Virus record (IMG/VR): IMGVR_UViG_3300044678_002668 | Span: 1-64,000 of that record | Source of the DNA: a virus | DNA length: 64,000 nt | Direction: 5' to 3' (one strand) | Part shown: one piece after another, positions 1 through 59,323 of the stretch | Numbering within the stretch: the first letter of the stretch is position 1 | Layout: each line of letters begins with the position of its first letter | The notes under the pieces: model-generated | Seen by the model: only the letters and a program-made list of their open reading frames with translations | Told to the model about the DNA's origin: nothing | Database searches by the model: none | Program-made: the position numbers and the translations under genes

Positions 1-89
1 GGTGTTAATAATAGCTTACGCCCCATCCTTAATTTTAAAGGTTGAGTGTATTGATTGTTTACAGTGCTTTTAATTCTTCTACTAGCCAT
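1..89 (-). CDS. 5' fragment of next virion-module gene (MASRRIKSTVNNQYTQPLKL...), runs off the window
   Basis: ATG at 89-87 overlaps the TAA of the upstream gene (TAATG), GGAG SD; frame open to position 1. Confidence 0.7.
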   Translation of the reverse strand, partial: MASRRIKSTVNNQYTQPLKLRMGRKLLLT

Positions 90-1177: not shown

Positions 1178-1179
1178 TT

Positions 1180-3522: not shown

Positions 3523-3532
3523 TTATATCTCC

Positions 3533-4417: not shown

Positions 4418-4422
4418 ACAAT

Positions 4423-4433
4423 ATTATTTGTTA
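4423..4433 (-). promoter_or_regulatory. putative late promoter TAACAAATAAT
   Basis: one of five identical same-strand copies; 5 nt before ATG at 4417. Confidence 0.6.
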
Positions 4434-5206
4434 GTTTTTTTAAGTTCTTGATAATGTTTAAGAATTCTTTGTTCACGTTTTTGAAGGTCTGGATGAGCTT
4501 TGCTAAAATCCTTTTGAAAAGGAGCGTCTGGATTGCCCATATATTGCACAGCGGCCCTAACAGGATCTCCCTGTTGATTTTTAAGAAGCTTATTTATTAA
4601 ATGGTCCACTATAAGTTCTTGAGATGCTTTATCTTTTTCAAGTTTATCTGAAATTTCTTGAGGAGATAGGCCAGAATATCCTTGTTCTTTTAATACTTTA
4701 GCTAAAGGAGTGTTGCCATAACGTTTAAAAATATCCTGTACTACAATGGGTGTAATCCCATAAGTACCCACAGCACGGCTGCCTTTTTGTTCTCCAGACT
4801 CAATGGTGGGATGTCTAGTATTTTTTCCATAATTGCTTTCAGCAAATGCGATAAGATCTCTAGCAAGCTTACGAGCGTCTTTAGAAGCGTATTCAGGAGC
4901 TTTTCTACCCATAGGCATACCCGCTTTTTGCTCTTCTAAAGGCCTTGTAAGGCTTTCTAAAGAGCTAAATCTACGCATTACTGGAGTATCTTGAGTAGGC
5001 ATTTGTGGTAGTTCTAAAGGAAGTACTTTAGGAATGTTCTCCATACTAGAGCTTTCCTCTAGAAGTTGTAAGTTTTCTAAAGGATTTTTATCTGGTACTT
5101 CTATTGGACTAGCTTGTGGAGCTTCTGAAAGTTTTAAAGTGGCAAACTTTCTTTTAAATCGGTTTTCAGGCCGTACTCCAAAAATATCCGCTGGGTCTTT
5201 TTTCAT
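4424..5206 (-). CDS. lysozyme-like / lytic transglycosylase-domain virion protein
   Basis: 'LIAFAESNYG...AVGTYGIT...AAVQY' resembles SLT motifs (ES, GxxQ-like, AxxxY); low-complexity N-terminus. Confidence 0.55.
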   Translation of the reverse strand: MKKDPADIFGVRPENRFKRKFATLKLSEAPQASPIEVPDKNPLENLQLLEESSSMENIPKVLPLELPQMPTQDTPVMRRFSSLESLTRPLEEQKAGMPMGRKAPEYASKDARKLARDLIAFAESNYGKNTRHPTIESGEQKGSRAVGTYGITPIVVQDIFKRYGNTPLAKVLKEQGYSGLSPQEISDKLEKDKASQELIVDHLINKLLKNQQGDPVRAAVQYMGNPDAPFQKDFSKAHPDLQKREQRILKHYQELKKTNK

Positions 5207-5210
5207 CTTA

Positions 5211-8200
5211 TTAACTTCCCAACTGTTTCTTTAAATATTCAATTTCTTTTTCTAAATCAGACATTTGTTTTTTACTTAAACCAGGAATTTTAAGTTCTTC
5301 TATGGCGTTTTCAAGTTGTTTTTGATAGCGAGTACGCATCATTTCTTTTAAACGAGTGGCTTCTTTTTGATCTGCTTCAGAAACTTTAGGCTGTTCTTTT
5401 GGCTTTTCTTCAGCTTTAGGAGCAGGTTTTTTATAGTTTTTTTCTAAATTTTCTGTTTTATTAAGAACTTCTTTTTGTAATTTTTTTTCTTTTAAAGAGT
5501 TTTTTTCTAAATTTTCTTTTGCTTCTTTTAATCTTTTTTCTATTTCTTTAATGTTTTTTTCATATTGAGCTTTTTGTTTATAATTTTTTTGTAAAATTTT
5601 GTTTAAAGCTTTTGTATTTTTTAAATTATTTGACATTTCGTTTAAGTTTTTTGATAAAACAAGGTCTTTTTCGTATTTAATTTCATCTAAAGTTTCTTGT
5701 AAACTTTTTATTTTTTCATTGTTTCCCTTAACAACATCTTTTTGAATAGATAAAGTACTTTGTAATCTTTTTAAAGACTCAGAACTTTCAAAAGGATTTT
5801 CTTCTATAATTTCTTCAAATAAATCTTCTTCTACCTTATTAGGTTTTTTTTCAACTTTAACAGGAGTTTTGGGTAGTTCTTCTTTTTTAAGAGCCTGTAC
5901 AGGTACTTCTTCTTCAGGAGAAATAGTCTTAGTATTCTTCTTAGAATAGCGTCCCTTACCATACATAGTGGCTTTTTCAACATCTCCAGATTGTTTTTTA
6001 ACAATGTTTAGAGCTGCTTTATTTAAAATAGGACCTACATTTGGGTGATTTTTTACTAACTCTTCTTTGCTTATAACCGAAGTTTTTTTCTCAACAAGCC
6101 CTTCTTGAAGAGTTTTAAAAACCTTACTATATCCAGCCATATTGTTTTTTAGCTGATCTACTTCATTTTTGACTTTAGACCAAGTTTTAGGAGCAGTTCT
6201 TAATTGTTTATCAAAAAACTCAATTAAATCCAAAGTGGCTCTAGACAAAGCTTCAGAAGTAAGTTCTAATTGGTTTTTTTGTAAATTGGTAGAAATAAAA
6301 CCCTCAAGAGCTTGAGCATCTTTAGGTTCAAGTTTTGTTGTTTTAGCAATTTCTTTAACTTCATTGTAAAAAGGAGTGTCAAAATATCCTTTTTTACCAG
6401 CTACAGACCTACCCACCATAGTGTTAACAGTATTAGTAAGCTGGTCAAAAGCTTCTTGAGGAAGGCCTTTAGCCCTCATTTTTTCCCCAATTTCAATAAA
6501 AGAGTTATACAGGTCTTGTTTAACGTATTGAATAGCTTCATCACTATCTTGTAAAAAGTCGTCTACAATAGCTTTTTTAACTGCTTTTTTCTTTTCAGGT
6601 AAGGGAAGATCTTTTACTTCTTCTTTAATTTGCTCTTTGGTTTTTTTAACTTTAGGAGCTTTAATAGGAGCTGGTTTAGGAGCTGCCACTGGAGCAGGAG
6701 CTGGAATAGACATAGCTGGAGCAGCAACAGGAGGAGGAACAGGAGCTGAAGGTGGAGCTGTTGCAGGAGGCGTAGCTTTAGCGGTGGCATCTAAAGCAGC
6801 TTGTTCTTGCTTTAACATTTCCTGATAGAGAAGCTCTTGATCTAATTCTTTTTCTGTAGCTTTTTTAGCAGACTCTTGTAGCTTTTTTAAATCAGGAGCT
6901 TTTGTAGAAGCTTTTTTTACACCTTTTAACTCTCCTTGAGCTTTAAGCATTTCTTGATAGAGAAGCTCTTCAGGAACTTCAGCTTTAGCCTCAGCCTTAG
7001 CAACAGCTTGAAGCCCTTCCATATATTTTTTATTTAGCTCTTCTGCATAAGCCAGCTCTTTTAAAGCCTCATCGTCAACTTCTTTAGCAGCTTGTTTTTG
7101 AAGTTGTTCTAAAATAGCTTCTTGCTGTTGTTCAGAAAGCTTAAGAAAGTCTTCCTGTTTTTTTAAAGACTCTGTAAAAGACTTGTCCAAAACCTCTTCG
7201 GCTTGCTTTTTACTTAAAGCAGCCATTTCTTTCTCAATAACATCAATAGAAACAGGAGAATCTAAATCGTCAATAGACCCCTTACCAAGTCCTAAATCCT
7301 CAAACATTTTAAGAGTAGGTAGATCTTGCTCTAAAACAGTATCAGCAAAACCTTTTTCTAAAGGTACGTTTTCTTTAGTAACAGGATTACTAAGAATTTC
7401 TTTAATGGCTTTTTTAGAATCGGCTTGAAGAATTCCTTTTGGATTTTTAAAAACATCACTTAAACTATTAAAAAACTCTTCAAAGAGTTGTTCATTTTTT
7501 CCAATATTTAAATGAGCATCAGGAACTTCAGGTAAGTTTAAAAACCTTTTAGCTTTTTCTAAAATGTAAGGTCGTAAAGAAGCTTCTGGATTTGCATATT
7601 TAGGATTATTAAAAAAGACCTCAGCGGCTTCAATTTCTTTTTTAAGATCCGGTTCAATTTCTTTTAAAAGAATTAGCTCTTCTTTTTGTTTAGTGGAAAG
7701 CTCTTCAGAAACTTTATCAGTTTTAGCTTTTTTTTGAGCTGCGAGCTGTTCGTCTTCTAGCTCTTTTAATTTTTCTTCTACAGTTTTTTTAGAAGTTTTA
7801 GGAGCGGTGGCTGGAGAAGCTTTTGCATCGTATTCTTGAATCTTTTTTGCAAGCTCGTCTTTTTGAGCTTTTAAAGCAATAAGCTCTTCTTTAGTGGCAG
7901 TTTCAACACCCTCATCCAAAGCCTTTAACTTTTGTTTATTAGCAATATAGTCTAAAGCTTCAGGAACTTCTAAGTTCTTTAAGGTGGTAGTTTCAGCGTC
8001 AATTTGATTTTTAATTGCATTTAGACGAGTACGATCTGCTTGTAAAGTAGCAATGACTTCATCAGATTTTTCAGACTTTAACTGAAGATCAATCTTTTTT
8101 AATTGATTTTCAACGTCTTGAGTTTGTTTTAAATTTTCTTTTAAAGCTTTGCTAACTTCCCTAGATTGTTTAAAAGCTTCTTTTTGATTTGCAATAACAC

Positions 8201-8927
8201 CTTTAACGTCAATTTTAGAAAGGTCTTTTGCTTTTTCAACAACTTTTCCAGGAATTTCAGGTACTTTTTTAGCAGTGTCAATTGCTTTTTTTGTAAGTCT
8301 TCCAGCTTGATAGGAAGCTTTAACTAAAGCTGGATCTGTTCTTTTTCCCAGTGTTTGCAATCCTTTACCAGACAATGCACCACCAATCAAATCAGCTCCA
8401 AAAAGTCCTACCTTACCCAAAGTAGAATCCGCTTCAAATTCCGATGAAAGTCCATACGGAACATCTAAAACAGTGCTGTCAATAGCCCCCTCTTTAATAG
8501 CCTTTAAACGCTCTATAGCATCGTAATCCTCTCCAGAAAGAGCTTCTTTTGCTAATACCGCAGCACCAGCATATCCAGCTCCTAACATATTACCAGCACG
8601 CATAGCAGCATCAGCAAGAGTTTTACTTAAAGGAGACTTATTTCCATATAAAGAAAGCTCATCTTTCATTTCATCCGAGCTTACAGAAATACCTGGAAGA
8701 ACGTTTTCTTCTCTTTTAGAACGAGCCGTACCTTGTTGAGAAGCTACATAATCCTGAAGTTTTTGAAGTTCTTGTACAATGCTGCGATGGGCTTGTACTC
8801 GTTCTTCTTGAGATTCAAAGGGTTTAGAAGGCTCTGTTTCTTTTACAGAAACGGGAGCTTTAGTGCCGCTTAAAGACGCGGCAATTTCTTCATCTGTCAT
8901 CGTATCAAAATTTGGATATTTACTCAT
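5211..8927 (-). CDS. large K/E-rich coiled-coil protein, probable internal virion/ejection protein
   Basis: 1238 aa directly after portal; Pro/Ala linker; repeated ELLYQEMLK. Confidence 0.5.
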   Translation of the reverse strand: MSKYPNFDTMTDEEIAASLSGTKAPVSVKETEPSKPFESQEERVQAHRSIVQELQKLQDYVASQQGTARSKREENVLPGISVSSDEMKDELSLYGNKSPLSKTLADAAMRAGNMLGAGYAGAAVLAKEALSGEDYDAIERLKAIKEGAIDSTVLDVPYGLSSEFEADSTLGKVGLFGADLIGGALSGKGLQTLGKRTDPALVKASYQAGRLTKKAIDTAKKVPEIPGKVVEKAKDLSKIDVKGVIANQKEAFKQSREVSKALKENLKQTQDVENQLKKIDLQLKSEKSDEVIATLQADRTRLNAIKNQIDAETTTLKNLEVPEALDYIANKQKLKALDEGVETATKEELIALKAQKDELAKKIQEYDAKASPATAPKTSKKTVEEKLKELEDEQLAAQKKAKTDKVSEELSTKQKEELILLKEIEPDLKKEIEAAEVFFNNPKYANPEASLRPYILEKAKRFLNLPEVPDAHLNIGKNEQLFEEFFNSLSDVFKNPKGILQADSKKAIKEILSNPVTKENVPLEKGFADTVLEQDLPTLKMFEDLGLGKGSIDDLDSPVSIDVIEKEMAALSKKQAEEVLDKSFTESLKKQEDFLKLSEQQQEAILEQLQKQAAKEVDDEALKELAYAEELNKKYMEGLQAVAKAEAKAEVPEELLYQEMLKAQGELKGVKKASTKAPDLKKLQESAKKATEKELDQELLYQEMLKQEQAALDATAKATPPATAPPSAPVPPPVAAPAMSIPAPAPVAAPKPAPIKAPKVKKTKEQIKEEVKDLPLPEKKKAVKKAIVDDFLQDSDEAIQYVKQDLYNSFIEIGEKMRAKGLPQEAFDQLTNTVNTMVGRSVAGKKGYFDTPFYNEVKEIAKTTKLEPKDAQALEGFISTNLQKNQLELTSEALSRATLDLIEFFDKQLRTAPKTWSKVKNEVDQLKNNMAGYSKVFKTLQEGLVEKKTSVISKEELVKNHPNVGPILNKAALNIVKKQSGDVEKATMYGKGRYSKKNTKTISPEEEVPVQALKKEELPKTPVKVEKKPNKVEEDLFEEIIEENPFESSESLKRLQSTLSIQKDVVKGNNEKIKSLQETLDEIKYEKDLVLSKNLNEMSNNLKNTKALNKILQKNYKQKAQYEKNIKEIEKRLKEAKENLEKNSLKEKKLQKEVLNKTENLEKNYKKPAPKAEEKPKEQPKVSEADQKEATRLKEMMRTRYQKQLENAIEELKIPGLSKKQMSDLEKEIEYLKKQLGS

Positions 8928-8937
8928 CTATATTTCC

Positions 8938-10950
8938 TTAAGAAATAGGTAAGTTTTGAGCAAGAATAGGCAAGCCGTTAGGAGACTCAGGAAGATTAGC
9001 TGCCATTTGCTCTAATCCTTCTGCCATCTGATCTACTGGCATACCAGCCAACTCAGGAGGGATTGGACCTTCTTGAGGTGCTCCAGCATTAGGTTGTTGC
9101 TGCATCATCATGGCTGGATCTTGAATTGGCTGTTGACCCAATACCATTAAAGTGGCAGGGTCACCTTGTCTTAGCTGATTAATATGTTCCTGAATGTGAT
9201 TTAAAACTCGTGAAACTAACTCAGGATCTCTTCGTAAATCTGGATCTGCCAATACTCCACGATGTTCCCGAATATGTAGAACATGCTCGTCTACAAACGT
9301 CACCACTACCGAATCTCCTCGTACCATGGCTTCGTTTTCACCACGCACGAGAATAAGCTCTTTTTCTGTAGATTCAGTCATCACATCCAAATTACCCGTT
9401 TTAAGTACTGTAAAATACTGTTCTGGTGTAATTTTTTGGAATTGAAGAAGGTTATTTGCCATCTCAGCTCTACCCGCTTTAGTTTGAGCTAGAGGGTTAC
9501 CAAGATCTACAATTACTCGATTTACTAAATCAATATCAGCTCCTTGAAACTCTTTTAAATACGAGCGGTTAGATTGACCTACAATGGAAGCTACTCGAGG
9601 AGTTTGAGCAAAGTCTTTAAGCATGTTAATGAGACCTGTACCAACATCCTCAATGAGCTGTACATAACTCTGCTGAAGACCGGACATAAATTGAAGAGCC
9701 ATACTTTGAACAAGAGCTAAAGAGTTACCCGAACGAAGAGATGCTTCTGGATTACCTCGGGCTACAGAGTTCACTCCAGAAACTGTTTCCATCTCTTTAA
9801 TTAGAGTGGCAATCAAATTATAAGTTTCTGCTGGAGTGGCAGTGGGGTTAAACGCAGTGGGAGGACCTACTTTAGAATCATACTCAATGACGTTTAAACC
9901 TCCAAATAGCTGACTTGTAACAATATTACTATCTTGAGGTACTAAAAGATTCTGCACTCCAAAAGCCGTATTATTACTTAATGCGGCACTATAAAGAGAG
10001 TTTACCGCTTCCTGAAGAGGAAGTAAGTCAAACATTGGAGTGTAACCATAAGGAGTTCCTAGGATTTCACCAGGAACAATGCGATAGATGGGTAGGTCTC
10101 GATAAGGCATAGGACCGTCATATAAATTGATGTTCTCGCTTAAGAACATCATATAACGACCTTCAGGCAAAGATTCTGTACGTTTATGATAGAACTCATA
10201 AACAGGTACGTCTTCTGACTCGTCTTCCGTCACAACGCCATCAAAACGAAAACGGAATACTTCCCCTTTAGTGGGCAAACCTTTAATTTTATCTGCTTGA
10301 TCTGGATACTTGGCCACTAAATCCCATTTGTTTTTCCAAGTGCGACATACAATCCAATTGTGATTGAAGTCTTCTTTAGATCCATCAAACATCACATCAA
10401 AAGGAGAAAGGTTAGAAAAAGATACGTCTCCTTCGTAAATGGGAGTATCGTCAATATAGTCCCAAATTTCACCAGAAGTGGCATCCCATTCCATTTTAAC
10501 GTAGCCAGCACCCAATACAATGGCGTATTCTACAGCTTTACGTAAATACTTTTCTAGGCGCTTTTCACGCATATAATAGTCTAACAAACCATCAGCTAGC
10601 TTGGTTTGTACAATGGATTTATAATCTGTGTTTGTGGCACGAGCAATCATGGCGGGCCTATTAGCCGTCACCATTACCAACATATGCTGAGCAATGTTAT
10701 GATAGTGGTTTACAGCGAGATGGGTAATCTCACCTTGCTCTCCACCAAAAAAGATCTTGTGACCATCAGTGCCAAAATAGGCTCCATGATAGGCACGCCA
10801 ACTGTCACGAATTTTTTCTACATATCCATTACGAGAAAGTCCGTCAAAGAAATATTTAGACTTTCCCAAAAGGGACGAAGAAAGTTTTTCAGGATCTTGG
10901 GCGGCAAAGTATTGCGACTCCAAGATGGTTTTAACGTCATCTGCCATCAT
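8938..10950 (-). CDS. portal protein (P22/podovirus-like)
   Basis: 670 aa right after terL; portal-like patterns (GxGYVKMEWD, LSPFDV, SGVNSVARG); Q/P-rich tail. Confidence 0.85.
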   Translation of the reverse strand: MMADDVKTILESQYFAAQDPEKLSSSLLGKSKYFFDGLSRNGYVEKIRDSWRAYHGAYFGTDGHKIFFGGEQGEITHLAVNHYHNIAQHMLVMVTANRPAMIARATNTDYKSIVQTKLADGLLDYYMREKRLEKYLRKAVEYAIVLGAGYVKMEWDATSGEIWDYIDDTPIYEGDVSFSNLSPFDVMFDGSKEDFNHNWIVCRTWKNKWDLVAKYPDQADKIKGLPTKGEVFRFRFDGVVTEDESEDVPVYEFYHKRTESLPEGRYMMFLSENINLYDGPMPYRDLPIYRIVPGEILGTPYGYTPMFDLLPLQEAVNSLYSAALSNNTAFGVQNLLVPQDSNIVTSQLFGGLNVIEYDSKVGPPTAFNPTATPAETYNLIATLIKEMETVSGVNSVARGNPEASLRSGNSLALVQSMALQFMSGLQQSYVQLIEDVGTGLINMLKDFAQTPRVASIVGQSNRSYLKEFQGADIDLVNRVIVDLGNPLAQTKAGRAEMANNLLQFQKITPEQYFTVLKTGNLDVMTESTEKELILVRGENEAMVRGDSVVVTFVDEHVLHIREHRGVLADPDLRRDPELVSRVLNHIQEHINQLRQGDPATLMVLGQQPIQDPAMMMQQQPNAGAPQEGPIPPELAGMPVDQMAEGLEQMAANLPESPNGLPILAQNLPIS

Positions 10951-10972
10951 AAATCCTTTGTAAATCCCTAAG

Positions 10973-10983
10973 ATTATTTGTTA
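10973..10983 (-). promoter_or_regulatory. putative late promoter TAACAAATAAT upstream of portal
   Basis: identical 11-mer overlapping terL stop, 22 nt before portal ATG. Confidence 0.6.
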
Positions 10984-12447
10984 ATTGGGTTTAGATTTGC
11001 CCTTAAAGAGCTTAGATCCAGAAAAGACCTTTTTAATGTGTTCAGTGAACTTTTTGTCTTGAGGTTTTTGACCTTTTCTCCAAAAAGCATTTTCTTCATC
11101 CACGTCTCTAAAGTCATACCCAGCAGGATAGGGGTTCTTATTTTGCTTTACATGTCGTACTAAATACTTTAAAGCGTCAACTCCGTCAAAGTGGCCATAA
11201 CCTTCAGCTCGAATATAAGAGGTTCTAGCTCTATTCCAAGTAGCATTAGCTAAATGTGCAATGAGATTGGTACATTTAGGATTAATGATGATGCGTTTTT
11301 GTTGCAACCACATCCTAAGATTGTTAAGGGCGGCATTAGCTTCGTCCTTATCAGCAGGAGAAAACCTAATTCCATGCATCCTATCTAAATCATTGATTAA
11401 AATTAAGTTATTATCGCAAACTCTTAAATAGGGGCTTCTAACTTCATTTGTAACTGGATCAGTAAAGTTATTAGCCTCCACTGCCCTGATGGTTTCAGCT
11501 AACTTGTCTGTAGTCATTGACTTACCATTAAGAACATATTCGTCTTCAATGATGAGCTTACCGTTTTTAAAATCGTAATAGGCCACTAAACCAAAAGTTA
11601 AATCTTTAAAACCAATATCCATTCCAACATATACGTCATAAAACGAAGGACGTTTCCATTCCGTAACAATGGATTCACGCAATTCTTGAGTAAATTCAGG
11701 TACTACGGCATCTTCTTGAGAAATCAAAAAGACACATTCATATTCTCGTTTAAACTGAATATCTTCTTTACCCATTGGATAAGAAGCTATGATTTCTTTT
11801 AAATCTTCTTCAGTGATGCGAGGATTATCGTATACTGTACGAGTAATGAGACTTTTATTAATCTCAGCTTGGCGTTTAAACTCTTCAAAATCGTGTCCAG
11901 GCTCTCTGGGAGGAGTGGAAGAGAGGATTACCTTACCTTTTGTAGTGAGCGTGGTGGGAATTAAGATGGACTTTACTAAATAATCTAAATCAGAACAGAA
12001 ACCTGCCTCATCTACAATGCAAAGAACAGAACTGCCTCCTCGTAAAGAGTCAGCACTTCCATTATCAGAACCCGCTAATTGAAGTTCTGATCCATTTGGA
12101 AAGTAAAAAATATTGTCTTGAGAGTTAAAAGTGGGTTTAAGCTCTTTAGGGCAGTCTTCGGTAATGGTACGAACAATGGGACGAATGTCCCGCTTAATCA
12201 TCTTACCTTCAGGAGCTACATATTTGACAACAGAATTCTTATTTTGAAGACAATACTCCATTGCCATAAGAGTAAGCAGGAAAGACTTACCCATACGACG
12301 AGAAGCCGAAAGAACTTGTACCTTTTGCCCCATCCTTTTAAGTTGACTATAAATGCCAAGTTGATTAGGGTCTAATTTCCAATGAAGGTGGCCAAGTTCC
12401 CAAAGCTTTCTTACCGCTTCTTTTTTAGATATTACTACCTGGTTCAT
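10981..12447 (-). CDS. terL: terminase large subunit
   Basis: Walker A SRRMGKS, Walker B IVDEAG, coupling motif SSTP, nuclease GMDIG and HFDGVDALKY. Confidence 0.95.
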   Translation of the reverse strand: MNQVVISKKEAVRKLWELGHLHWKLDPNQLGIYSQLKRMGQKVQVLSASRRMGKSFLLTLMAMEYCLQNKNSVVKYVAPEGKMIKRDIRPIVRTITEDCPKELKPTFNSQDNIFYFPNGSELQLAGSDNGSADSLRGGSSVLCIVDEAGFCSDLDYLVKSILIPTTLTTKGKVILSSTPPREPGHDFEEFKRQAEINKSLITRTVYDNPRITEEDLKEIIASYPMGKEDIQFKREYECVFLISQEDAVVPEFTQELRESIVTEWKRPSFYDVYVGMDIGFKDLTFGLVAYYDFKNGKLIIEDEYVLNGKSMTTDKLAETIRAVEANNFTDPVTNEVRSPYLRVCDNNLILINDLDRMHGIRFSPADKDEANAALNNLRMWLQQKRIIINPKCTNLIAHLANATWNRARTSYIRAEGYGHFDGVDALKYLVRHVKQNKNPYPAGYDFRDVDEENAFWRKGQKPQDKKFTEHIKKVFSGSKLFKGKSKPN

Positions 12448-13281: not shown

Positions 13282-13310
13282 TTGCAAAATCCCCACAAAT
13301 CTTCTATAAT
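13282..13310 (+). promoter_or_regulatory. sigma70-type promoter of clpP-like/thyA unit
   Basis: TTGCAA-17 nt-TATAAT. Confidence 0.7.
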
Positions 13311-13319
13311 TATTTGTTA
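13309..13319 (-). promoter_or_regulatory. putative late promoter TAACAAATAAT heading the terminase operon
   Basis: identical 11-mer in divergent intergenic region, overlapping the opposite -10 box. Confidence 0.6.
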
Positions 13320-17220: not shown

Positions 17221-17252
17221 AAAAAAAAAGGGAGAGGCTTTCGCCCCTCCCC
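17221..17252 (-). terminator. rho-independent terminator
   Basis: minus strand GGGAGGGGC-GAAA-GCCTCTCCC followed by T9, just after stop at 17260. Confidence 0.9.
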
Positions 17253-17745: not shown

Positions 17746-17952
17746 AAGGGGGCACTGTTAAGGCAGAGTGTTTTAGTAAAGGGGGCACTGTTAAGCTTAC
17801 ACACTCGCGCAAGAAGAAACGCGTTACGCGCATGAAGGGGGCACTGTTAAGAAAATAATTTTGTTTCAATTTGAGATTATTTAATTATATGAGTATGATA
17901 TTATTTTTTATTCCCTTCCCTTGGTTTGATTCAGATTAGGGGCAGTGTTAAG
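17746..17952. repeat. iteron-like direct repeats AAGGGGGCACTGTTAAG
   Basis: exact copies at 17746, 17779, 17835; variant AGGGGCAGTGTTAAG at 17938; AT-rich tract 17852-17910. Confidence 0.85.
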
Positions 17953-18163
17953 TATCAGATTGATATTTAGCTAGGGGATTAGTGTTTTCGCATAATCAAA
18001 TCACTATCTTTTCTCTCCTCATTCTCTCTCCTCATTATCCTTCATTTCTCATGTCCCTGACAGTAGGTATAATAACTTATATCCTAAATATAAATAATAA
18101 TCATACTTAATCTTTGCCCGACCCGAGTCGTTCCGCAGGGTTACGCCACACGAAAAAAATCGT

Positions 18164-18193
18164 TTGACACGACCGGCGGCTCGGTGCTATTCT
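18164..18193 (+). promoter_or_regulatory. rightward sigma70-type early promoter
   Basis: A-tract, TTGACA-18 nt-(TGc)TATTCT. Confidence 0.8.
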
Positions 18194-18250
18194 GGTTTTG
18201 GTCGGCCGCTCCCTCGCACTAATTAAGCCCGCTCTAATAAGGAGGTTGTT

Positions 18251-26405: not shown

Positions 26406-26548
26406 TAAAATTAAACAGTTTCCTCAACTTAACCTACGACTTACGCATCTTAGCTCCCATCTCAATTGTACATGATTTAATTCATAAACCGACTTTGTAT
26501 TTAACTTATCGTGAAGATATGTGGAATAAAGGATGTGTTTATGCGTAG
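26402..26548 (+). CDS. micro-protein D2 (MIKL..., 48 aa)
   Basis: ATGA overlap; clear paralog of D1. Confidence 0.75.
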   Translation: MIKLNSFLNLTYDLRILAPISIVHDLIHKPTLYLTYREDMWNKGCVYA

Positions 26549-26663
26549 CTTAAAACCTATTTATAACTTGTTTGGATGGGATGATTTGTTGGATAGGATG
26601 TATTCTCATATACCTTATGCCACCTATGAATTCTGGAAAGAGGCTTCTGAATGGAATACTTAA
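26541..26663 (+). CDS. micro-protein D3 (MRSL..., 40 aa)
   Basis: AAAGGA SD; 8-nt overlap. Confidence 0.7.
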   Translation: MRSLKPIYNLFGWDDLLDRMYSHIPYATYEFWKEASEWNT

Positions 26664-26812
26664 TTGTTTTCCGTGAAAAATATAGTTATAAACTACATAT
26701 GATAAACACCATAGAACCTTCAATGGAAATTGATTATAAAATGTTAGAACATGAAAGCTATAGACCAGCCCATTTTACCTTTTGGTCGAATGTAAATTGG
26801 AATGTGGTATGA
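26651..26812 (+). CDS. micro-protein D4 (MEYL..., 53 aa)
   Basis: GAGG SD; 13-nt overlap. Confidence 0.7.
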   Translation: MEYLIVFREKYSYKLHMINTIEPSMEIDYKMLEHESYRPAHFTFWSNVNWNVV

Positions 26813-26955
26813 ACAATATTTCTAATCTTTATCTAGCATTGTATACTAGTACGTATTTTATTATTAAAGCAAGAGAGAATAATCCTATAGCTATAGATGC
26901 TCCTGCTTATTGGAGCGACATCATTAAGAAAGTTGAAAGGTATGAGTATGTCTAA
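26809..26955 (+). CDS. micro-protein D5 (MNNI..., 48 aa)
   Basis: ATGA overlap. Confidence 0.7.
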   Translation: MNNISNLYLALYTSTYFIIKARENNPIAIDAPAYWSDIIKKVERYEYV

Positions 26956-27094
26956 ATTAAAAGAGCTTTATAGGATTGTGTTTGAACGCAGAGATCTTCA
27001 TGTTAAGATTAACCCTCTTTATTTTCATGAAGAGTTTTATCCTGGGCATAACTTCTTTTGGGATACCGCTATAAGGAAAGGGAATTTTCTGTGA
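26948..27094 (+). CDS. micro-protein D6 (MSKL..., 48 aa)
   Basis: AAAGG SD; 8-nt overlap. Confidence 0.7.
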   Translation: MSKLKELYRIVFERRDLHVKINPLYFHEEFYPGHNFFWDTAIRKGNFL

Positions 27095-27252
27095 CTAATT
27101 TAGAATACAATATGTGGGATGAATGTAATGTTATATCTGAACATAATGTTTGGGTAGAACACACTACTCCTGAAAATAGAAATCATTTTCAAGCTTCTTT
27201 TACAAGTAACTGGTCTTGGTGGATTATGAAAACAGGGGAATATATTACATGA
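27091..27252 (+). CDS. micro-protein D7 (MTNL..., 53 aa)
   Basis: GTGA overlap. Confidence 0.7.
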   Translation: MTNLEYNMWDECNVISEHNVWVEHTTPENRNHFQASFTSNWSWWIMKTGEYIT

Positions 27253-27584
27253 AATACGAAAAGTATAAAGATTTCACACAGTTAACAGGATCGTTAGAGG
27301 ACATTGCTCTTGGTCTTGAGGATGAGCTAGTTAATGTGGACATTAAAGTCAAGCGTAAGAACTTCTTGGAGTGGTTGGGAGGAGATGAAGTTATCCTAGA
27401 ATCTGAATGGCCTCTTTATTGGGGCTCATCCTTTACTCTTAAAGGAGTATTGGAACCTCAAGAAGGAACCTGGGAAGTGGAGTTAGCGGTTACTGAGGGG
27501 GGAGATGAGGTGAGTGTATACGATATGGGGAACACTCTCTATTCCTACTTAGACGAACTCTTATCAGATTACACTAATACGTGA
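27249..27584 (+). CDS. acidic hypothetical protein
   Basis: ATGA overlap at 27249; E/D-rich, 111 aa. Confidence 0.7.
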   Translation: MKYEKYKDFTQLTGSLEDIALGLEDELVNVDIKVKRKNFLEWLGGDEVILESEWPLYWGSSFTLKGVLEPQEGTWEVELAVTEGGDEVSVYDMGNTLYSYLDELLSDYTNT

Positions 27585-27599
27585 CATCCTGTTTATAGC

Positions 27600-27995
27600 T
27601 ACCCTTGCGCTTCGTGCTTTTAGGCACTACGCTTTTGGCGTTTGCTTAGATACACTAACCCTATTACGGGACTTTAAGTTACGCCGTTCCTTTTGGGAAC
27701 ATTGGCGGGACATATAGCTTAGAACCCTTATGGGTTCAGTCTAGGGTGGCTTATGCCACCGAGCTGTTCAAGAGGGTAGAGCCTCTCTAGGGTAGTATGC
27801 CCAGCTCTTGACCACCTGTGGTTAGGCTAGTAGAATATATATCTACAGTCGGTTAACCTAACTCTTTGGGCGGGCCTTGCGCCTTCACTATATGTCCAGG
27901 TTCAGACCCTTGATTGTCCTTTAAGAAGGGGCACTAGTAGTCTAACCTGTTTGGCCTGGCCTCATTAGCTTCGGCGTCTAATGGGTAGGTCTTAC
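27600..27995 (+). ncRNA. candidate large structured non-coding RNA/ssDNA element (strand from G-U pairs; leftward promoter argues for minus)
   Basis: no ORF >=60 aa; more than 12 stems incl. GGACATATAG(27708-17)/CTATATGTCC(27888-97), GAACCC-ttat-GGGTTC, GGTGGC-ttat-GCCACC. Confidence 0.65.
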
Positions 27996-27999
27996 TATT

Positions 28000-28028
28000 A
28001 TTGTAATATTATTTGTTACTTAAGTAAA
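28000..28028 (-). promoter_or_regulatory. leftward promoter(s) facing the structured element
   Basis: TAACAAATAAT at 28018-28008 nested in TTTACT-17 nt-TACAAT. Confidence 0.55.
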
Positions 28029-28053
28029 GAATAAAAAGAGTAAAAGGAGTGAC

Positions 28054-28245
28054 ATGATTATCTTAGATTACTTTGATGGGTCTCTTATTAAAGAGTTAAG
28101 ACGAGAGATTAAGAACTTACAATTTCAACAAGAATATATGAAACAGTTTGAAGATATTTATGTAGGTACTCGAGACAGTTTTTTAAGTATTGGAATAAAT
28201 TATATTTCTGACCATTATAAGAGGTATATGGATACATGGTTTTAA
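28054..28245 (+). CDS. micro-protein E1 (MIIL..., 63 aa)
   Basis: AAGGAG SD; RDSFL motif. Confidence 0.75.
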   Translation: MIILDYFDGSLIKELRREIKNLQFQQEYMKQFEDIYVGTRDSFLSIGINYISDHYKRYMDTWF

Positions 28246-28418
28246 TCACAAATGAACTTGGATTTTATAACCACTATCTAAAACATACAGATGGAGATAT
28301 TCCTGCTGAAGAAGATAGTCCAATCTGGTATTATTTTTTTGGTAGTGATAGGGATGGTATGCTAGTATCTCATTCATATTTATGGGAATTTATTAAAGAA
28401 CATATGGAGACTATGTAA
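28236..28418 (+). CDS. micro-protein E2 (MVLI..., 60 aa)
   Basis: RDGML motif. Confidence 0.75.
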   Translation: MVLITNELGFYNHYLKHTDGDIPAEEDSPIWYYFFGSDRDGMLVSHSYLWEFIKEHMETM

Positions 28419-28419
28419 G

Positions 28420-28608
28420 ATGACGAGCCTACATGAGTTTGGAATTGTAAGATATTATCTTTTTGATAGCGGCGCCACTTTAGACATCTTAGAGCTTAAA
28501 AAAACTCTCTATTATAGAGAACAGCCTTCCATGAGAGACAGTTTTTTATCTATAAAAACAACTTATTTATTCTCTGATTTGGATACTTATTTAGAAAGAG
28601 GTTTATGA
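28420..28608 (+). CDS. micro-protein E3 (MTSL..., 62 aa)
   Basis: RDSFL motif. Confidence 0.75.
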   Translation: MTSLHEFGIVRYYLFDSGATLDILELKKTLYYREQPSMRDSFLSIKTTYLFSDLDTYLERGL

Positions 28609-28760
28609 AAATCTTATCTTATGAGAATGCAATACCAGCATACTTTGACTATGATGTTGTTTACTATCTTTTTTTCGCAGCTTCTGGTGATGGTTTTTTA
28701 ACATTAGGAGATTGCGATACGATGCTACGTATTATGGAAAAGGTTTTGGAAAATTTATGA
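28605..28760 (+). CDS. micro-protein E4 (MKIL..., 51 aa)
   Basis: ATGA overlaps; GDGFL motif. Confidence 0.7.
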   Translation: MKILSYENAIPAYFDYDVVYYLFFAASGDGFLTLGDCDTMLRIMEKVLENL

Positions 28761-28939
28761 ATCCTATATATAAGCCTATTAGCCTGATATTAAACATGTA
28801 CTATAGTGTTAAACAAAACCTGTTAGTAAATAATGTAGCTCATAATGGTGGATTTACTTATCTAAGAGATGGATGGTTTACTAGAAATACTTCTAAACTT
28901 TTATTTGAAATTTTTGAAGAGGCTTTTAATGTACTCTAA
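28757..28939 (+). CDS. micro-protein E5 (MNPI..., 60 aa)
   Basis: ATGA overlap; RDGWF motif. Confidence 0.7.
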   Translation: MNPIYKPISLILNMYYSVKQNLLVNNVAHNGGFTYLRDGWFTRNTSKLLFEIFEEAFNVL

Positions 28940-29714
28940 ATATGATGACCATACCTTTCTTCCCCTAACAATTAACGAACATGGCCGTCCCGATGGAGGA
29001 GATAGTTTAGCTAACTTTGCAAGATATTACCTAGCATGTTTAGCCACTGGCAAACCCTTTACATTAGAACCTCTAACACATGTCCTCTCCCCAGAAGGAG
29101 TTTGTATTAGACATCCAGGAGAAGGCTTTTATTGCAGCTTCTATTATCAAGGTCCGCTTTTTTGGAACAACCCTAAAGAAGTTAGTAGGGACCAAATGAA
29201 AGCTTTAATGTGGGTTATGGCCTATTATAAGAAACATCCCGAATTGTTAAAGGACAAGCCCAAATTCGCAACACTCTTCACACAGCTCGAATACCTTTAT
29301 TCTAAAAGGCTATATATGTTTGCCCAGAATGGTGACGTTATGTTGCCTTTCTTTATGGCTAAATCTTATCCTTGGCTCCTGTTTAGAGATTTAGAAATGT
29401 TAATTAACCTTGCCATTGTTTGTGGGGTATTACCAATTGTAAGGCATGATAAGCCTTGGGGATTTGGTAAAGGATACAAGGTCATGTTTAGTTGGCAAGA
29501 TAAGGAAGACTGGTGTGATGGAGATTGCAACATGCTTGTTGACTTGATTGGTTCTTTTCTGATAAAAGATACCTGGATGTCAAAGTGGATGCGACGTATC
29601 TATAATAAAATTAGAGGAGATAAATATATCCAACACTATTATAGAAATGAATCTGGCAATAATGAAGAGATTGGTAGGGAGCTAGCTTTAGCTGGAAAGA
29701 GCAGTACTTTATGA
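28929..29714 (+). CDS. hypothetical enzyme-like protein
   Basis: start 28929 (GAGG SD); DGGDS, IRHP and SRDQ motifs. Confidence 0.7.
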   Translation: MYSKYDDHTFLPLTINEHGRPDGGDSLANFARYYLACLATGKPFTLEPLTHVLSPEGVCIRHPGEGFYCSFYYQGPLFWNNPKEVSRDQMKALMWVMAYYKKHPELLKDKPKFATLFTQLEYLYSKRLYMFAQNGDVMLPFFMAKSYPWLLFRDLEMLINLAIVCGVLPIVRHDKPWGFGKGYKVMFSWQDKEDWCDGDCNMLVDLIGSFLIKDTWMSKWMRRIYNKIRGDKYIQHYYRNESGNNEEIGRELALAGKSSTL

Positions 29715-33940: not shown

Positions 33941-36748
33941 GTGAATCCAAGCAACAAGATTCTCTCAGACATCACCGCCTTTACTAAGTATGCTAAATAC
34001 TTACCTCATCTAGGACGACGAGAAACCTTGGCAGAAACCATTAACCGCTGTATGTCAATGCACCTGGATAGGTTTTCTCATCTGTCTTATGACATCACTA
34101 AAGCCTTTCAACGGGTACATGATTTGCGCGTTATGCCTTCCATGCGTTCCCTTCAGTTTGCAGGAGAGGCCGTATTAAAAAATCCAGCCCGTCAATATAA
34201 CTGTTCCTACACTCCTATTAACGACACTAAAACTTTTAGTGAGGTTTTGTTTCTTCTTCTGTCTGGAGTCGGTGTGGGGTTCTCTGTTCAACGAGACCAT
34301 GTAAACCAACTTCCTAAAATCACAATGCCCAAAGAACAAGGTCTTTATGTTGTGCAGGATTCCATTGTGGGATGGGCTGAAGCTCTTAATACTTTAATGG
34401 AAGCTTATTTCTTTGGAAAGATTAAGCCAGAATATGATTTCTCACAAGTACGTCCTAAAGGCTCATATCTCGTCACCACGGGTGCTAAAGCTCCTGGCCC
34501 TGAGCCCCTTAAGTACATGCTTAAAACAGTGGAGGGAAAGCTATTAGAAGCAATGGGACGTAGGCTAAAGCCCATTGAAGTACATGACATTGTATGTATT
34601 ATTAGCGATTGCGTTCTTTCTGGAGGTATTCGTAGGGCTGCCCTTATTTCTGTATTTGATAGAGACGATATGGAAATGCTAAAAGCTAAGCATGGAGAGT
34701 GGTGGGTTAAACATCCCTATAGAGCTAGATCAAATAACTCTGCCGTTCTTCCTTATGATAAGGTCACTAAGGAAGAGTTCTTTGAAATTTTTAAAATCTG
34801 TCAAGACTCTAATTCTGGAGAGCCTGGATTTAGTTGGACCAATAACACAGATTGGTCTTTTAACCCATGTGTATCAGGTAACACAGAAATTCTAACTCGT
34901 AATGGATACGAGCGTATTGACTCTGTTGTAGATACTGAAGTGGAAGTTTGGAATGGTTTTGAATGGTCTAAAGTAACTCCTAAAGTAACAGGCACAAACC
35001 AAGAAATGCTTACCATTACTTTTAATAACGGCATTTCACTAGAGTGTACTAAATATCATAAGTTCCATATTGCCACTAACTACACGGGCGGAGTTAAAAT
35101 TGTTGAGGCTAAAGATCTTGAGCCTGGAATGAAGTTAATCAAACATGAATTTCCTATTATTGAGCATGGAAAAGTTTTAGAAAACGCTTATACACAAGGA
35201 TTTGTGTCAGCGGAAGGGATGGATAATTACAAATTTTGTTGGGTATATGAACCTAAAAAAATGTGTATTGAACGGTTAAAAGAAAACGCTTCACGAATTA
35301 GTGAAGAAAGTTTTGGAAGAGTTTCTGTACATTTTAAAACAGCTCTTCTTCCAAAGAACTTCGTGCCATTTGAATATAATCTCAAATCAAAACTAGATTG
35401 GTTGTCTGGATTATTTGATGGAGATGGGTGTGAGCTAAAAGAAGGAGGCTTGCAATTAACTTCCATTGACAAGCAGTTTCTTCTAAATGTTCAAAAACTT
35501 TTATCCACTGTGGGAGTTTCTTCTAAGGTAGTGGCTGGAATGAAGGCTGGACTAAGAAGTTTACCAGACGGTAAAGGAGGACACAAAGACTTTAATTGTC
35601 AAGAAGCTTATAGAATCCTTGTAGGATCTGTACAAATGCAAAGCTTAAAAAAGCTAGGACTTTCTTGTGAGCGTCTCAAGTTTGACAAGTCTCCTCAACG
35701 AGACGCTTCACAGTTTGTGTCTGTAGTGGATGTTGTTGATTCTGGAGTGGCAGAAAAAGTATATTGTTTTAACGAGCCTAAAAATCATACAGGAATTTTT
35801 GGTGGAGTTATTACAGGACAGTGCCATGAGATTGCACTGAATCCCAACCAGTTTTGCAATTTGTCCACAATCAATCAATCTAATATTAAAGATAAGCGAG
35901 ACTTTATGAATAGGGTTCATTCAGCCACGCTTATTGGAACTCTTCAAGCGGCTTATACAGACTTCCATTATTTGCGTCCTATTTGGCGAGAGCAAACAGA
36001 ACGTGAGGCTTTGTTGGGTGTGAGCTTTACTGGTATTGCTGATGGTACAGGTATTGTTACAAACGAATGGCTAAAAGAAGGAGCAGAGTTCGCTAAAGAG
36101 ATTAATCTTAAATATGCTAAGAAGCTAGGAATTAACCCAGCGGCTCGCATCACCACCACTAAACCAGAAGGCACTAGCTCTTGTATTTTAGGATCTTCTA
36201 GTGGTGTACATGCTCGTCATGCTCCATATTACATTCGCCGTATCCGAATGAATAAAGACGATGCTCTAGCTGTATACTTACGAGCCATGCTACCAGACTT
36301 GGTGGAAGACGATAAGTTTTCTTCTACTGGAGTAGTGGTTAGTATTCCACAAGAAAGTCCAAAGAACTCTGTTATTAGAAATGATGAGACGGCGTTTACA
36401 CTATTCCAGCGTACTCTAGATTACAATACTCATTGGGTACGTAATGGGCATCGCTATGGAGATAACCACCATAATGTAAGCGCCACCATTTCAGTACGTC
36501 CAAATGAATGGGACACTCTTAAAGAACAAATGTGGGAGAATAGGTATTCCTATCATGGCATTAGCTTACTTCCATACGATAATGGAACTTATGTACAAGC
36601 TCCCTTTGAAGAGTGTACGGAAGAAAAGTATAATGAAATGATGACTCTTGTTAAAGAAGTAGACCTCACTCAAGTAAGGGAAGAAGAAGATAAAACTACC
36701 AGAGCTGAAGAATTAGCTTGTGTTGGCGGTGTTTGCTTGGTAGAATAA
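33941..36748 (+). CDS. nrdJ: class II (adenosylcobalamin-dependent) ribonucleotide reductase, intein-containing
   Basis: PSMRSL, YNCS, GVGVGFS, SGGIRRAALI, NP[intein]CHEI, FCNL, KPEGT, C-terminal CVGGVC; no NrdB gene seen. Confidence 0.93.
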   Translation: MNPSNKILSDITAFTKYAKYLPHLGRRETLAETINRCMSMHLDRFSHLSYDITKAFQRVHDLRVMPSMRSLQFAGEAVLKNPARQYNCSYTPINDTKTFSEVLFLLLSGVGVGFSVQRDHVNQLPKITMPKEQGLYVVQDSIVGWAEALNTLMEAYFFGKIKPEYDFSQVRPKGSYLVTTGAKAPGPEPLKYMLKTVEGKLLEAMGRRLKPIEVHDIVCIISDCVLSGGIRRAALISVFDRDDMEMLKAKHGEWWVKHPYRARSNNSAVLPYDKVTKEEFFEIFKICQDSNSGEPGFSWTNNTDWSFNPCVSGNTEILTRNGYERIDSVVDTEVEVWNGFEWSKVTPKVTGTNQEMLTITFNNGISLECTKYHKFHIATNYTGGVKIVEAKDLEPGMKLIKHEFPIIEHGKVLENAYTQGFVSAEGMDNYKFCWVYEPKKMCIERLKENASRISEESFGRVSVHFKTALLPKNFVPFEYNLKSKLDWLSGLFDGDGCELKEGGLQLTSIDKQFLLNVQKLLSTVGVSSKVVAGMKAGLRSLPDGKGGHKDFNCQEAYRILVGSVQMQSLKKLGLSCERLKFDKSPQRDASQFVSVVDVVDSGVAEKVYCFNEPKNHTGIFGGVITGQCHEIALNPNQFCNLSTINQSNIKDKRDFMNRVHSATLIGTLQAAYTDFHYLRPIWREQTEREALLGVSFTGIADGTGIVTNEWLKEGAEFAKEINLKYAKKLGINPAARITTTKPEGTSSCILGSSSGVHARHAPYYIRRIRMNKDDALAVYLRAMLPDLVEDDKFSSTGVVVSIPQESPKNSVIRNDETAFTLFQRTLDYNTHWVRNGHRYGDNHHNVSATISVRPNEWDTLKEQMWENRYSYHGISLLPYDNGTYVQAPFEECTEEKYNEMMTLVKEVDLTQVREEEDKTTRAEELACVGGVCLVE
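34868..35821 (+). mobile_element. intein with LAGLIDADG homing endonuclease (318 aa)
   Basis: starts CVSGNTEIL, block B CTKYH, WLSGLFDGDG, ends GVITGQ before Cys+1. Confidence 0.93.
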
Positions 36749-37034: not shown

Positions 37035-37526
37035 ATGCCAATTAGTCAAGCTACCATTGCAGAATTTCATGAAAAGTTTACTTACAATAAAGCTACAGGT
37101 AAACTCAAAAGCCGCACTACACTAAAAGAAATTGGCCATCAGAAAAAAGACGGCTATGTGTATATTCTCCATAATAAAAAATCCTATCCTATACATAGAG
37201 TGGTGTATGCCATGGTTATGGGAGAAGATCCCCCAGGATTAATGGACCATAAGAATGGAGATAAGGCAGATAACCGATGGGTAAATCTAAGACTGGTTAG
37301 CCATAAGGAAAATGCCTACAATGCTGGCATTCCTAAACACAACACTTCTGGATATAAGGGAGTATGTTGGCATAAGCACAAGAAACGCTGGTACTCTTAC
37401 ATTAAAATGAATGGAAAGACTTTACATGTTGGGTATTTCCGTACAGCTAGGGAAGCGGCGAGAGCTTATAATAGGATGGCTAGGAAATTGCGTGGAGAGT
37501 ATGCAAAAGTAAACCCCAATACGTGA
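37035..37526 (+). CDS. HNH homing endonuclease with AP2 domain
   Basis: HRVVY...DHKNGDKADNRWVNLR...EN; NTSGYKGVCW...W...GYF..AREAARAY. Confidence 0.93.
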   Translation: MPISQATIAEFHEKFTYNKATGKLKSRTTLKEIGHQKKDGYVYILHNKKSYPIHRVVYAMVMGEDPPGLMDHKNGDKADNRWVNLRLVSHKENAYNAGIPKHNTSGYKGVCWHKHKKRWYSYIKMNGKTLHVGYFRTAREAARAYNRMARKLRGEYAKVNPNT

Positions 37527-40172: not shown

Positions 40173-40425
40173 AAAGATTAAAGAAGATATTTTAAAAGAA
40201 GAACAAAAAGTAAATGAGGTGGTTGAATATAGCCACTTCATTTATGATTGTTATAAATCGGAGGAAGGAAAATATGTAATTGTAAAACTAAGCTTTAATT
40301 CAAACGGAGACGTGTCACTGGAGCTTACAGGAAAAGAGTTTGACAATCCTGCTAAAGCAGACTACAATATACAAGAACTCAATGGTAATGAACGAGTTCG
40401 AAGATTAAGAAAGGGTAATTTATGA
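40147..40425 (+). CDS. hypothetical protein
   Basis: GAGGA SD before ATG 40147. Confidence 0.65.
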   Translation: MPKATERYKKIKEDILKEEQKVNEVVEYSHFIYDCYKSEEGKYVIVKLSFNSNGDVSLELTGKEFDNPAKADYNIQELNGNERVRRLRKGNL

Positions 40426-59312: not shown

Positions 59313-59323
59313 ATTATTTGTTA
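59313..59323 (-). promoter_or_regulatory. putative late promoter TAACAAATAAT
   Basis: identical 11-mer 11 nt before ATG 59301. Confidence 0.6.

Follow-up and report, generated by a model that had tools for sequence, protein, structure and literature searches.

We analysed bases 1-64000 (hereafter, the window) of the IMG/VR virus record IMGVR_UViG_3300044678_002668, which comprises 79,502 bp and has an estimated completeness of 95%. The element under study is a block at 27585-27995, given here without a strand, that is free of open reading frames (ORFs), GC-rich and densely base-paired and sits within the plus-strand early gene block of this phage. The analysis confirmed that the block is real, non-coding and exceptionally structured. 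It is plausibly, if somewhat short of probably, a lineage-specific composite control region between operons of the early gene block. With the same reserve, three components would be combined in it: the structured end of an early operon, an early promoter that lies within the block and is followed by a structured leader, and a convergent late promoter on the antisense strand.

The non-coding state of the block, claimed in a preliminary description of this DNA, held in every frame. No ORF was found in 27585-28023, all six frames being closed by 9-14 stops each, and both TAA and TAG occur in every frame. A recoded ORF was rejected because no single stop reassignment opens a frame, and the number of stops per frame likewise led us to reject a recent pseudogene. 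The GC content of the block is 0.48-0.50, compared with 0.26-0.35 in the neighbouring arrays of micro-ORFs and 0.38 in the whole genome of the phage, which bears out the GC-richer island that had been described.

For the folding analysis, a 469-nucleotide (nt) stretch was compared with dinucleotide shuffles on both strands, a check that the preliminary description had proposed. The minimum free energy (MFE) was -162.2 kcal/mol on the plus strand (z -4.0) and -140.6 kcal/mol on the minus strand (z -3.9); both values are significant, and none of the 100 shuffles folded as well on either strand. Additionally, 794 segments of 200 nt were scanned across the genome on both strands, with GC correction by regression rather than by shuffles. 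The plus-strand segments starting at 27601 and 27701 were the two strongest folding outliers of the genome (both z -3.7), and the best minus-strand value at the same place was -2.5.

All of the stems listed earlier, including the 10-bp stem, the TTAT-loop hairpins, the three-way junction, GTAGA/TCTAC and the flanking hairpins, were found where they had been placed. AGTCTA/TAGGCT and GTGC/GCAC are valid pairings as well, although they are alternatives to the pairings of the MFE structure. The 5' hairpins form domain A (27614-27707, plus strand), with a nested 16-bp hairpin at 27614-27655 and CGCC-GTTCCT/GGGAAC-GGCG at 27682-27707. The 8-bp helix 27619-26/27643-50 requires two G-U pairs and hence forms on the plus strand only; the z-scores of domain A were -2.2 (plus) and -1.75 (minus). 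The core domain (27708-27897, no strand specified) consists of a perfect 10-bp closing stem, 27708-17/27888-97, around seven hairpins. By our own estimate, about 0.07 such stems are expected by chance in 400 nt, and this stem alone is not significant. Two of the core hairpins, GAACCC/GGGTTC (27722-37) and GGTGGC/GCCACC (27745-60), have 6 bp each and TTAT loops, and a three-way junction at 27761-27807 is formed by GAGCT...AGCTC enclosing AGAGG/CCTCT and GGGTA/TGCCC. The core hairpins are perfect Watson-Crick helices and fold on both strands. The core MFE was -78.6 kcal/mol on the plus strand (z -3.0) and -75.7 kcal/mol on the minus strand (z -5.2), with the centroid near the MFE structure.

On the 3' side, hairpin C (27898-27950, plus strand) is formed by CAGGTT-AGAC/GTCT-AACCTG enclosing TGTCCTTT/AAGGGGCA. 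It is stable on the plus strand only: the part 27898-27995 reached -32.8 kcal/mol on that strand and -23.2 kcal/mol on the minus strand, with z-scores of just -1.6 and -0.8, respectively. Hairpin D (27953-28003, plus strand) is long and imperfect, carries a CUUCGG loop and is followed by TTACTATTATT, which gives it a weak intrinsic-terminator-like end. Its stem (27953-27991) is bulged and G-U-rich, and the TTACTATT that follows has 5 T in 8 bases as counted by eye. A terminator scan of both strands of 26500-29000 called no intrinsic terminator, hairpin D included. An AT-rich spacer of about 60 nt (~75-80% A+T) lies 3' of hairpin D and precedes the ribosome-binding site of the downstream array of micro-ORFs (array E).

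Regarding the functional strand, the evidence is mixed and the plus strand is somewhat more likely. The whole block is 15-21 kcal/mol more stable on the plus strand, and the flanking hairpins A, C and D fold better there. The claim that the non-Watson-Crick pairs are G-T on the plus strand stood as a tendency only, with 13 G-U pairs in the plus-strand MFE structure versus 7 in that of the minus strand. The loops are U-rich on the plus strand and A-rich on the minus strand (AUAA twice, AAAA), and no GNRA-type or other recognisable tertiary-contact loop was found in the block.

The first of two facing promoter candidates lies inside the core. A sigma-70-type match, TTGACC-17-TAGAAT, was found on the plus strand at 27808-27836; it scores 10/12 and would start an RNA near 27843. 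The scan was a consensus match only. In the 38.7-kb early block (12501-51182), matches of at least 10/12 numbered 20 sense versus 4 antisense, and the two late blocks together gave 4 and 7. Most of the early-block matches seen at 12.4-32.3 kb lie in or at ORF-free gaps, and the best match was TTGACA-17-TACAAT at 40340-40368. Because of the 20:4 sense bias and the location mostly in or at ORF-free gaps, this class of matches looks largely real, and it suggests early promoters that would be used by the host RNA polymerase. The scan returned no match directly 5' of 27600.

The second candidate belongs to the motif TAACAAATAAT, which is the commonest 11-mer of the genome, with all ten exact copies on the minus strand. 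Nine copies are in, or at the head of, late blocks. Eight are located 5-35 nt before an ATG (seven of these were checked against called minus-strand ORFs), and the leaders of the remaining two measure about 140-160 nt. The copies within the window are at 4423-4433, 10973-10983, 13309-13319, 28008-28018 and 59313-59323. The copy at 28018-28008, extended as TAACAAATAATATT, lies in the AT-rich spacer to the right of the block and points into it; it fits an extended 14-mer common to three other copies, and there is no ORF behind it. A search of IMG/VR with the 14-mer gave single chance matches only. Related phages carry the variants TAACAAATAT, TAACAACTAT, TAACAAGTTA and ATAACATATA, which have the same late-gene strand bias. 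From these positions, TAACAAATAAT is likely a late-promoter or late-leader signal of a large group of uncultured phages of about 80 kb. We infer its action as a promoter, rather than as a signal at the RNA level, from position only. Neither a phage RNA polymerase nor a late sigma-like (gp55/gp33-like) factor emerged from non-exhaustive Pfam and PHROG scans of about 30 larger proteins.

A comparable arrangement was found in G001, the most collinear relative. Its region 28327-28518 holds an antisense copy of its own 13-nt late motif, AATAACATATAGT, with about 190 nt of ORF-free sequence on one side and, on the other, the ribosome-binding site that serves the next early micro-ORF, which is the same layout as 27995-28053 of the window. 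The G001 stretch folded with z -2.15 in the sense direction and 0.1 in the antisense direction, and it could not be aligned with the block. In another relative, G007, an antisense copy of the motif precedes an ORF of 304 amino acids (aa).

In the control-region model, early readthrough RNA would fold into the multi-hairpin structure of 27600-27900, which would serve to mark, protect or process the upstream operon at its 3' end. Transcription would then restart near 27843 from the embedded promoter and provide array E with a structured leader of about 210 nt, ending in hairpin D and its U-rich tail. Late in infection, the TAACAAATAAT motif would start a non-coding minus-strand RNA near 28000. 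This antisense RNA would extend back across leader, promoter and block, and would shut off array E and the upstream early genes by convergent-transcription interference and by sense/antisense pairing. Both transcripts would be structured because the core helices are perfect palindromes. We infer all of these transcripts and effects; the structure, the non-coding state and the motif statistics are observations.

Several findings support this control region. The fold signal is concentrated between the stop of the upstream ORF and the embedded start (27585-27842, z -3.5), and 27843-28056 reached only z -1.7. The layout is repeated in G001 with that phage's own antisense late motif, the plus strand is the more stable one and has the more G-U pairs, and the strand bias of the late motif (10/10 copies on the late-gene strand) is kept by the variants of the relatives. 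The two facing promoters are known as sequence motif matches, and there is statistical support for each class.

Other points weigh against it. Both promoters are motif matches only, and a 10/12 sigma-70 match is unremarkable for 400 nt of the early block, where about 0.2 would be expected on the strand concerned. Transcription from the embedded promoter would place the two arms of the 10-bp stem in separate transcripts, so that stem and promoter could not both be relevant to a single RNA. A plain terminator or leader requires neither a GC island nor about 15 helices, which leaves the size and stability of the block unexplained; elsewhere in the early block, ORF-free gaps are AT-rich and lack structure. 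The terminator scan called no canonical intrinsic terminator on either strand. Moreover, as the G001 stretch is not alignable, the common layout may be convergent or due to chance.

The search for relatives of the block bears on all of the readings. Blastn of the block and of the surrounding 16 kb against 50,697 GenBank phages returned nothing, even at E<=10. The preliminary description had proposed a search for homologs, and none was found in 28 related phage records from IMG/VR, in 15 metagenome-assembled genomes (MAGs) that contain relatives or in 401 genomes of Flavobacteriaceae, where blastn and a covariance model built on the core (R1) gave only chance matches of about 20-30 nt. The sole match of R1 in the genome is the core itself, at 245 bits; the E-values of this model are rough. 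Two loop-and-junction descriptor patterns with the stems masked had 0 matches in IMG/VR.

Searches with the neighbouring proteins were similar. As IMG/VR queries, the 122-aa, 281-aa, VWA and PolA proteins revealed no near kin, and a metagenome scan with the 63-aa downstream protein gave nothing. Among 5.8 billion proteins, the 122-aa and 281-aa neighbours matched their own clusters only, plus one 50% homolog on a 1.4-kb Logan contig; for the 122-aa protein, this was its own cluster at >=90%. Exact-sequence look-ups found near-identical phages (at least 90% protein identity) on JGI, ENA and Logan contigs of 21-27 kb.

More distant kin are abundant. The 28 IMG/VR relatives were selected by the portal protein; nine are at least 90% complete, and the relatives from viral and metagenome scans all have at most 60% portal identity. 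No gap that is at once GC-rich, ORF-free and strongly folding occurs in the nine relatives that are complete or nearly so, and hardly any of the proteins encoded in their early regions have counterparts in this phage. In metagenomes, portal relatives with 56-75% identity number in the thousands on contigs of 70-89 kb, those with 67-75% on contigs of 80-85 kb. Because of these thousands of relatives, the phage group is a large and widespread one of uncultured environmental phages of about 80 kb. As far as the sequences compared indicate, the block is confined to the nearest kin of this phage.

Portal relatives with 35-57% identity, on contigs of 67-88 kb, were also binned in MAGs of Flavobacteriaceae/Bacteroidia, cyanobacteria (Dolichospermum, Synechococcus), Melainabacteria and Saccharibacteria. 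Others were found inside a Bdellovibrio chromosome and a 986-kb Pseudobdellovibrionaceae contig, and may be prophages. One relative, G012, has a 500-nt ORF-free, AT-rich gap in its early block (75763-76281, minus strand in the retrieved segment) with a z of -5.0; within it, ahead of a micro-ORF array, are a canonical terminator (GGGAAGGGG...U-run) and a TTGACA promoter. Homology of the block with the gap of G012 or of G001 was rejected, there being no protein or DNA similarity.

For known RNA families, we searched the 4227 covariance models of Rfam 15, which include group I/II introns, RNase P, tmRNA, 6S, SRP, GOLLD, ROOL, HEARO, OLE, raiA, riboswitches and small ribozymes. No family reached its gathering score anywhere in the window. 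When the search was relaxed to E<=10 and lax filters, on 1001 nt and 411 nt, the sole match was a 16-nt hairpin to P26, with 13.8 bits against a gathering score of 36, so that not even a real weak similarity was obtained. With its default settings, ARAGORN found 0 tRNA or tmRNA genes in the window and in the whole genome. These results agree with the earlier statement that no tRNA, tmRNA, RNase P or group I/II intron core was recognised in the block. A tRNA remnant was rejected, as ARAGORN made calls only at 70-80% of its default thresholds and these were mutually inconsistent. A group I/II intron was rejected because no gene is interrupted: 30 nt separate the stop of the upstream ORF from the first hairpin, no frame is open after the block, and the next ORF is preceded by a ribosome-binding site of its own. 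A retron msr-msd has a long-range stem, as the block does, but was rejected because no reverse transcriptase domain was found in the proteins scanned (part of the ORFs of the genome), the flanking ORFs being a 122-aa orphan and micro-ORFs of 60-63 aa. A miniature inverted-repeat transposable element was rejected as well, given a single copy in the genome and no target duplication.

Two readings in which the block yields a single RNA keep some weight because the control-region model leaves the roughly 15 helices and the GC island unexplained; each of them is unlikely. In the first, the block would give a single, discrete RNA of about 400 nt that is structured, non-coding and active in trans, made early from the plus strand and either processed from a polycistronic transcript or ended at hairpin D. 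The whole-block fold on this strand is closed and well defined, with the centroid near the MFE structure; the two top fold outliers of the genome are plus-strand segments, the flanking hairpins are stabler and G-U pairs more numerous there, the 3' hairpin is terminator-like with a U-rich tail, and a GC island amid AT-rich DNA is typical of RNA genes. On the other hand, a promoter match is within the core and none is directly 5' of 27600, a copy of the late-gene motif points antisense into the block, and the z-score of the core is better on the minus strand (-5.2 versus -3.0). The loops are U-rich rather than of tertiary-contact types, and the block is absent from the 28 related records, with no analogous gap in the nine complete or nearly complete ones. 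Thus, of the novel large phage RNA proposed initially, the real, non-coding, exceptionally structured and family-less part stood, whereas one discrete 400-nt plus-strand RNA was unsupported in view of the embedded promoter and the antisense late motif.

In the second reading, held to be just as doubtful, the functional RNA would be a late minus-strand non-coding RNA started from TAACAAATAAT at 28018-28008, whose first 400 nt are the reverse complement of the block and contain the same hairpin set. This is the only reading with its own dedicated and statistically solid expression signal (10/10 oriented copies, and no ORF behind this one). It is also favoured by the core z of -5.2 and by the A-rich loops, as these are often found in the unpaired parts of folded RNAs. 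The only reading frame of this strand 3' of the antisense late motif is a 28-codon ORF at 27713-27627, which would encode a very basic peptide, MSRQCSQKERRNLKSRNRVSVSKQTPKA, and may be due to chance. Against such an RNA, hairpins A, C and D are less stable on the minus strand (-23.2 versus -32.8 kcal/mol and z -0.8 for the 98-nt 3' part), the terminator scan called nothing at the left edge, the matching minus-strand stretch of G001 is unstructured (z 0.1), and the promoter role of the motif comes from position only. A broader version of both readings, in which the block would found a new class of large structured phage RNAs, is likewise of low probability. It would be a single molecule of about 400 nt with its own function late in infection, for example as a decoy, scaffold or regulator. 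The best candidate for it would be the minus-strand transcript from the late motif, with the plus-strand species as the alternative, and its fold would be kept by selection in closer relatives.

A role at the DNA level is less probable still. Here, the palindromes would bind proteins, as operators around the embedded promoter, or serve as a replication or recombination site beside the AT-rich spacer, and the RNA fold would be under no selection. The core helices are indeed perfect palindromes that fold equally on both strands. Two of them overlap promoter elements, GTAGA-ATATATA-TCTAC the -10 hexamer and start site and TGACCA-CCTG-TGGTTA the -35 hexamer, and an AT-rich spacer (~60 nt, ~75-80% A+T) follows. 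However, no two of the palindromes have the same sequence, and hence a separate protein would have to recognise each of them; the flanking helices, moreover, rely on G-U pairs. The two TTAT-loop hairpins share loop and stem length and not stem sequence, which is expected from selection on hairpins and not from duplex recognition. No direct repeats or iterons involving the block were found in the genome.

A functionless relic that folds by descent, such as a decayed foreign insert left by a mobile element, an intron or another RNA gene, is equally improbable: the GC-richer island is limited to the nearest kin of the phage, 10-bp inverted repeats bound the 170-bp core and a homing-type element (an HNH-AP2 endonuclease after the RNR gene) occurs elsewhere in the genome, but these repeats are not accompanied by a target-site duplication, the Rfam search at E<=10 brought up not even a weak resemblance to introns or ribozymes, the block is single-copy in the genome and interrupts no gene, and a decaying element is not expected to stay the best-folding 400 nt of the genome.

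The genome is organised into a late block on the minus strand (89-12447; terminase and P22-type portal), an early/middle block on the plus strand (~13.3-51.2 kb) and a second late block on the minus strand (51.2-79.5 kb). The early/middle block encodes ClpP, thymidylate synthase, a MoxR/VWA pair, RNR, an HNH-AP2 endonuclease, a PD-(D/E)XK nuclease, a primase-helicase and PolA. The structured block is flanked by a 122-aa orphan and by micro-ORFs of 60-63 aa. The upstream orphan (27249-27584, plus strand) has 111 aa if read from its ATG and 122 aa if read from a TTG at 27216. The ATG shares bases with the stop codon of the final array-D micro-ORF, to which the orphan is translationally coupled, and the TGA stop of the orphan is 30 nt 5' of the first hairpin. 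The location between arrays D and E given previously was therefore right, except that this coupled ORF stands between array D and the block. The protein has no Pfam match, and its AlphaFold2 model is unconfident (predicted local distance difference test, pLDDT, of 47), with uninformative Atlas neighbours. Given this orphan status, model and neighbours, we rejected the proposal that the block is an RNA partner of the 122-aa protein. Readthrough of its TGA (27582-27623) would give 12 more codons (HPVYSYPCASCF) with a C-x-x-C motif, then TAG; nothing tested supported recoding at this stop.

On the other side, the first micro-ORF of array E has a Shine-Dalgarno sequence, AAAGGAG, and an ATG at 28054 (28040-28056, plus strand). 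Shine-Dalgarno-like sequences precede 52% of the ORFs of at least 80 aa, against a background of 12%. Three further observations were made in the early block. A free-standing homing-type endonuclease with HNH_3 and AP2 domains (37035-37526, plus strand) lies directly 3' of the RNR gene (33941-36748). The RNR has 935 aa compared with 701 positions in the PHROG profile and may hold an insertion such as an intein. A textbook intrinsic terminator on the minus strand (17229-17252), GGGGAGGGGC-GAAA-GCCTCTCCCT followed by T8, adjoins an ORF-free gap (17885-18226) with three promoter matches.

If the RNA fold of the block is under selection, it would add a new, family-less structured RNA to the few large ones from phages; should the block be just a spacer specific to this lineage, it would be an ordinary finding. 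The analysis also defines the likely late-gene signal of the phage group, namely TAACAA-N-TA-type motifs strictly oriented with the late genes. Together with host-type promoters on the early strand, the probable convergent pair of early and late promoters provides a testable model of early-gene shut-off.

Compared with known systems, the layout resembles the cis-antisense switches of phages with convergent promoters, in which sar RNA acts against ant in P22 and the oop and paQ RNAs act in lambda. Those RNAs are simple and 70-200 nt long. In these switches, a short non-coding RNA starts from a promoter inside or just 3' of an early unit and runs back over the leader; here, the late motif at 28018-28008 similarly faces the sense promoter match at 27808-27836, about 160-190 nt away. 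Unlike in P22 and lambda, the overlap would extend into a 400-nt GC-rich multi-hairpin block, and the antisense signal, known here from motifs alone, is a phage-specific late motif and not a host-type one.

The TAACAAATAAT motif itself can be compared with T4-type late promoters, which are A+T-rich (e.g., TATAAATA). Both are short, strictly oriented and placed before late genes with short leaders, whereas TAACAAATAAT differs in sequence and lies 5-12 nt from some ATGs, so that the mRNAs would be nearly leaderless.

GOLLD (RF01998) and ROOL (RF03087), which are often phage-carried, are likewise large, intricately folded and non-coding. Neither was among the Rfam matches, and in contrast to them the block is smaller, is not conserved across related phages, has no adjacent tRNAs (the genome has none) and has U-rich loops instead of tertiary-contact types. 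Early mRNAs of the T7 type have intercistronic RNase III processing hairpins and stabilising 3' stem-loops, each processing site being one hairpin that spans about 60 nt and contains an internal loop. By its predicted fold, the block is similar to them as a structured non-coding RNA between early cistrons, situated directly 3' of a stop codon and 5' of a strong ribosome-binding site, but it has about 15 helices and a closed multiloop domain. The block is lineage-specific, is a member of no curated RNA family, and is larger and more ornate than the P22, lambda and T7 precedents.

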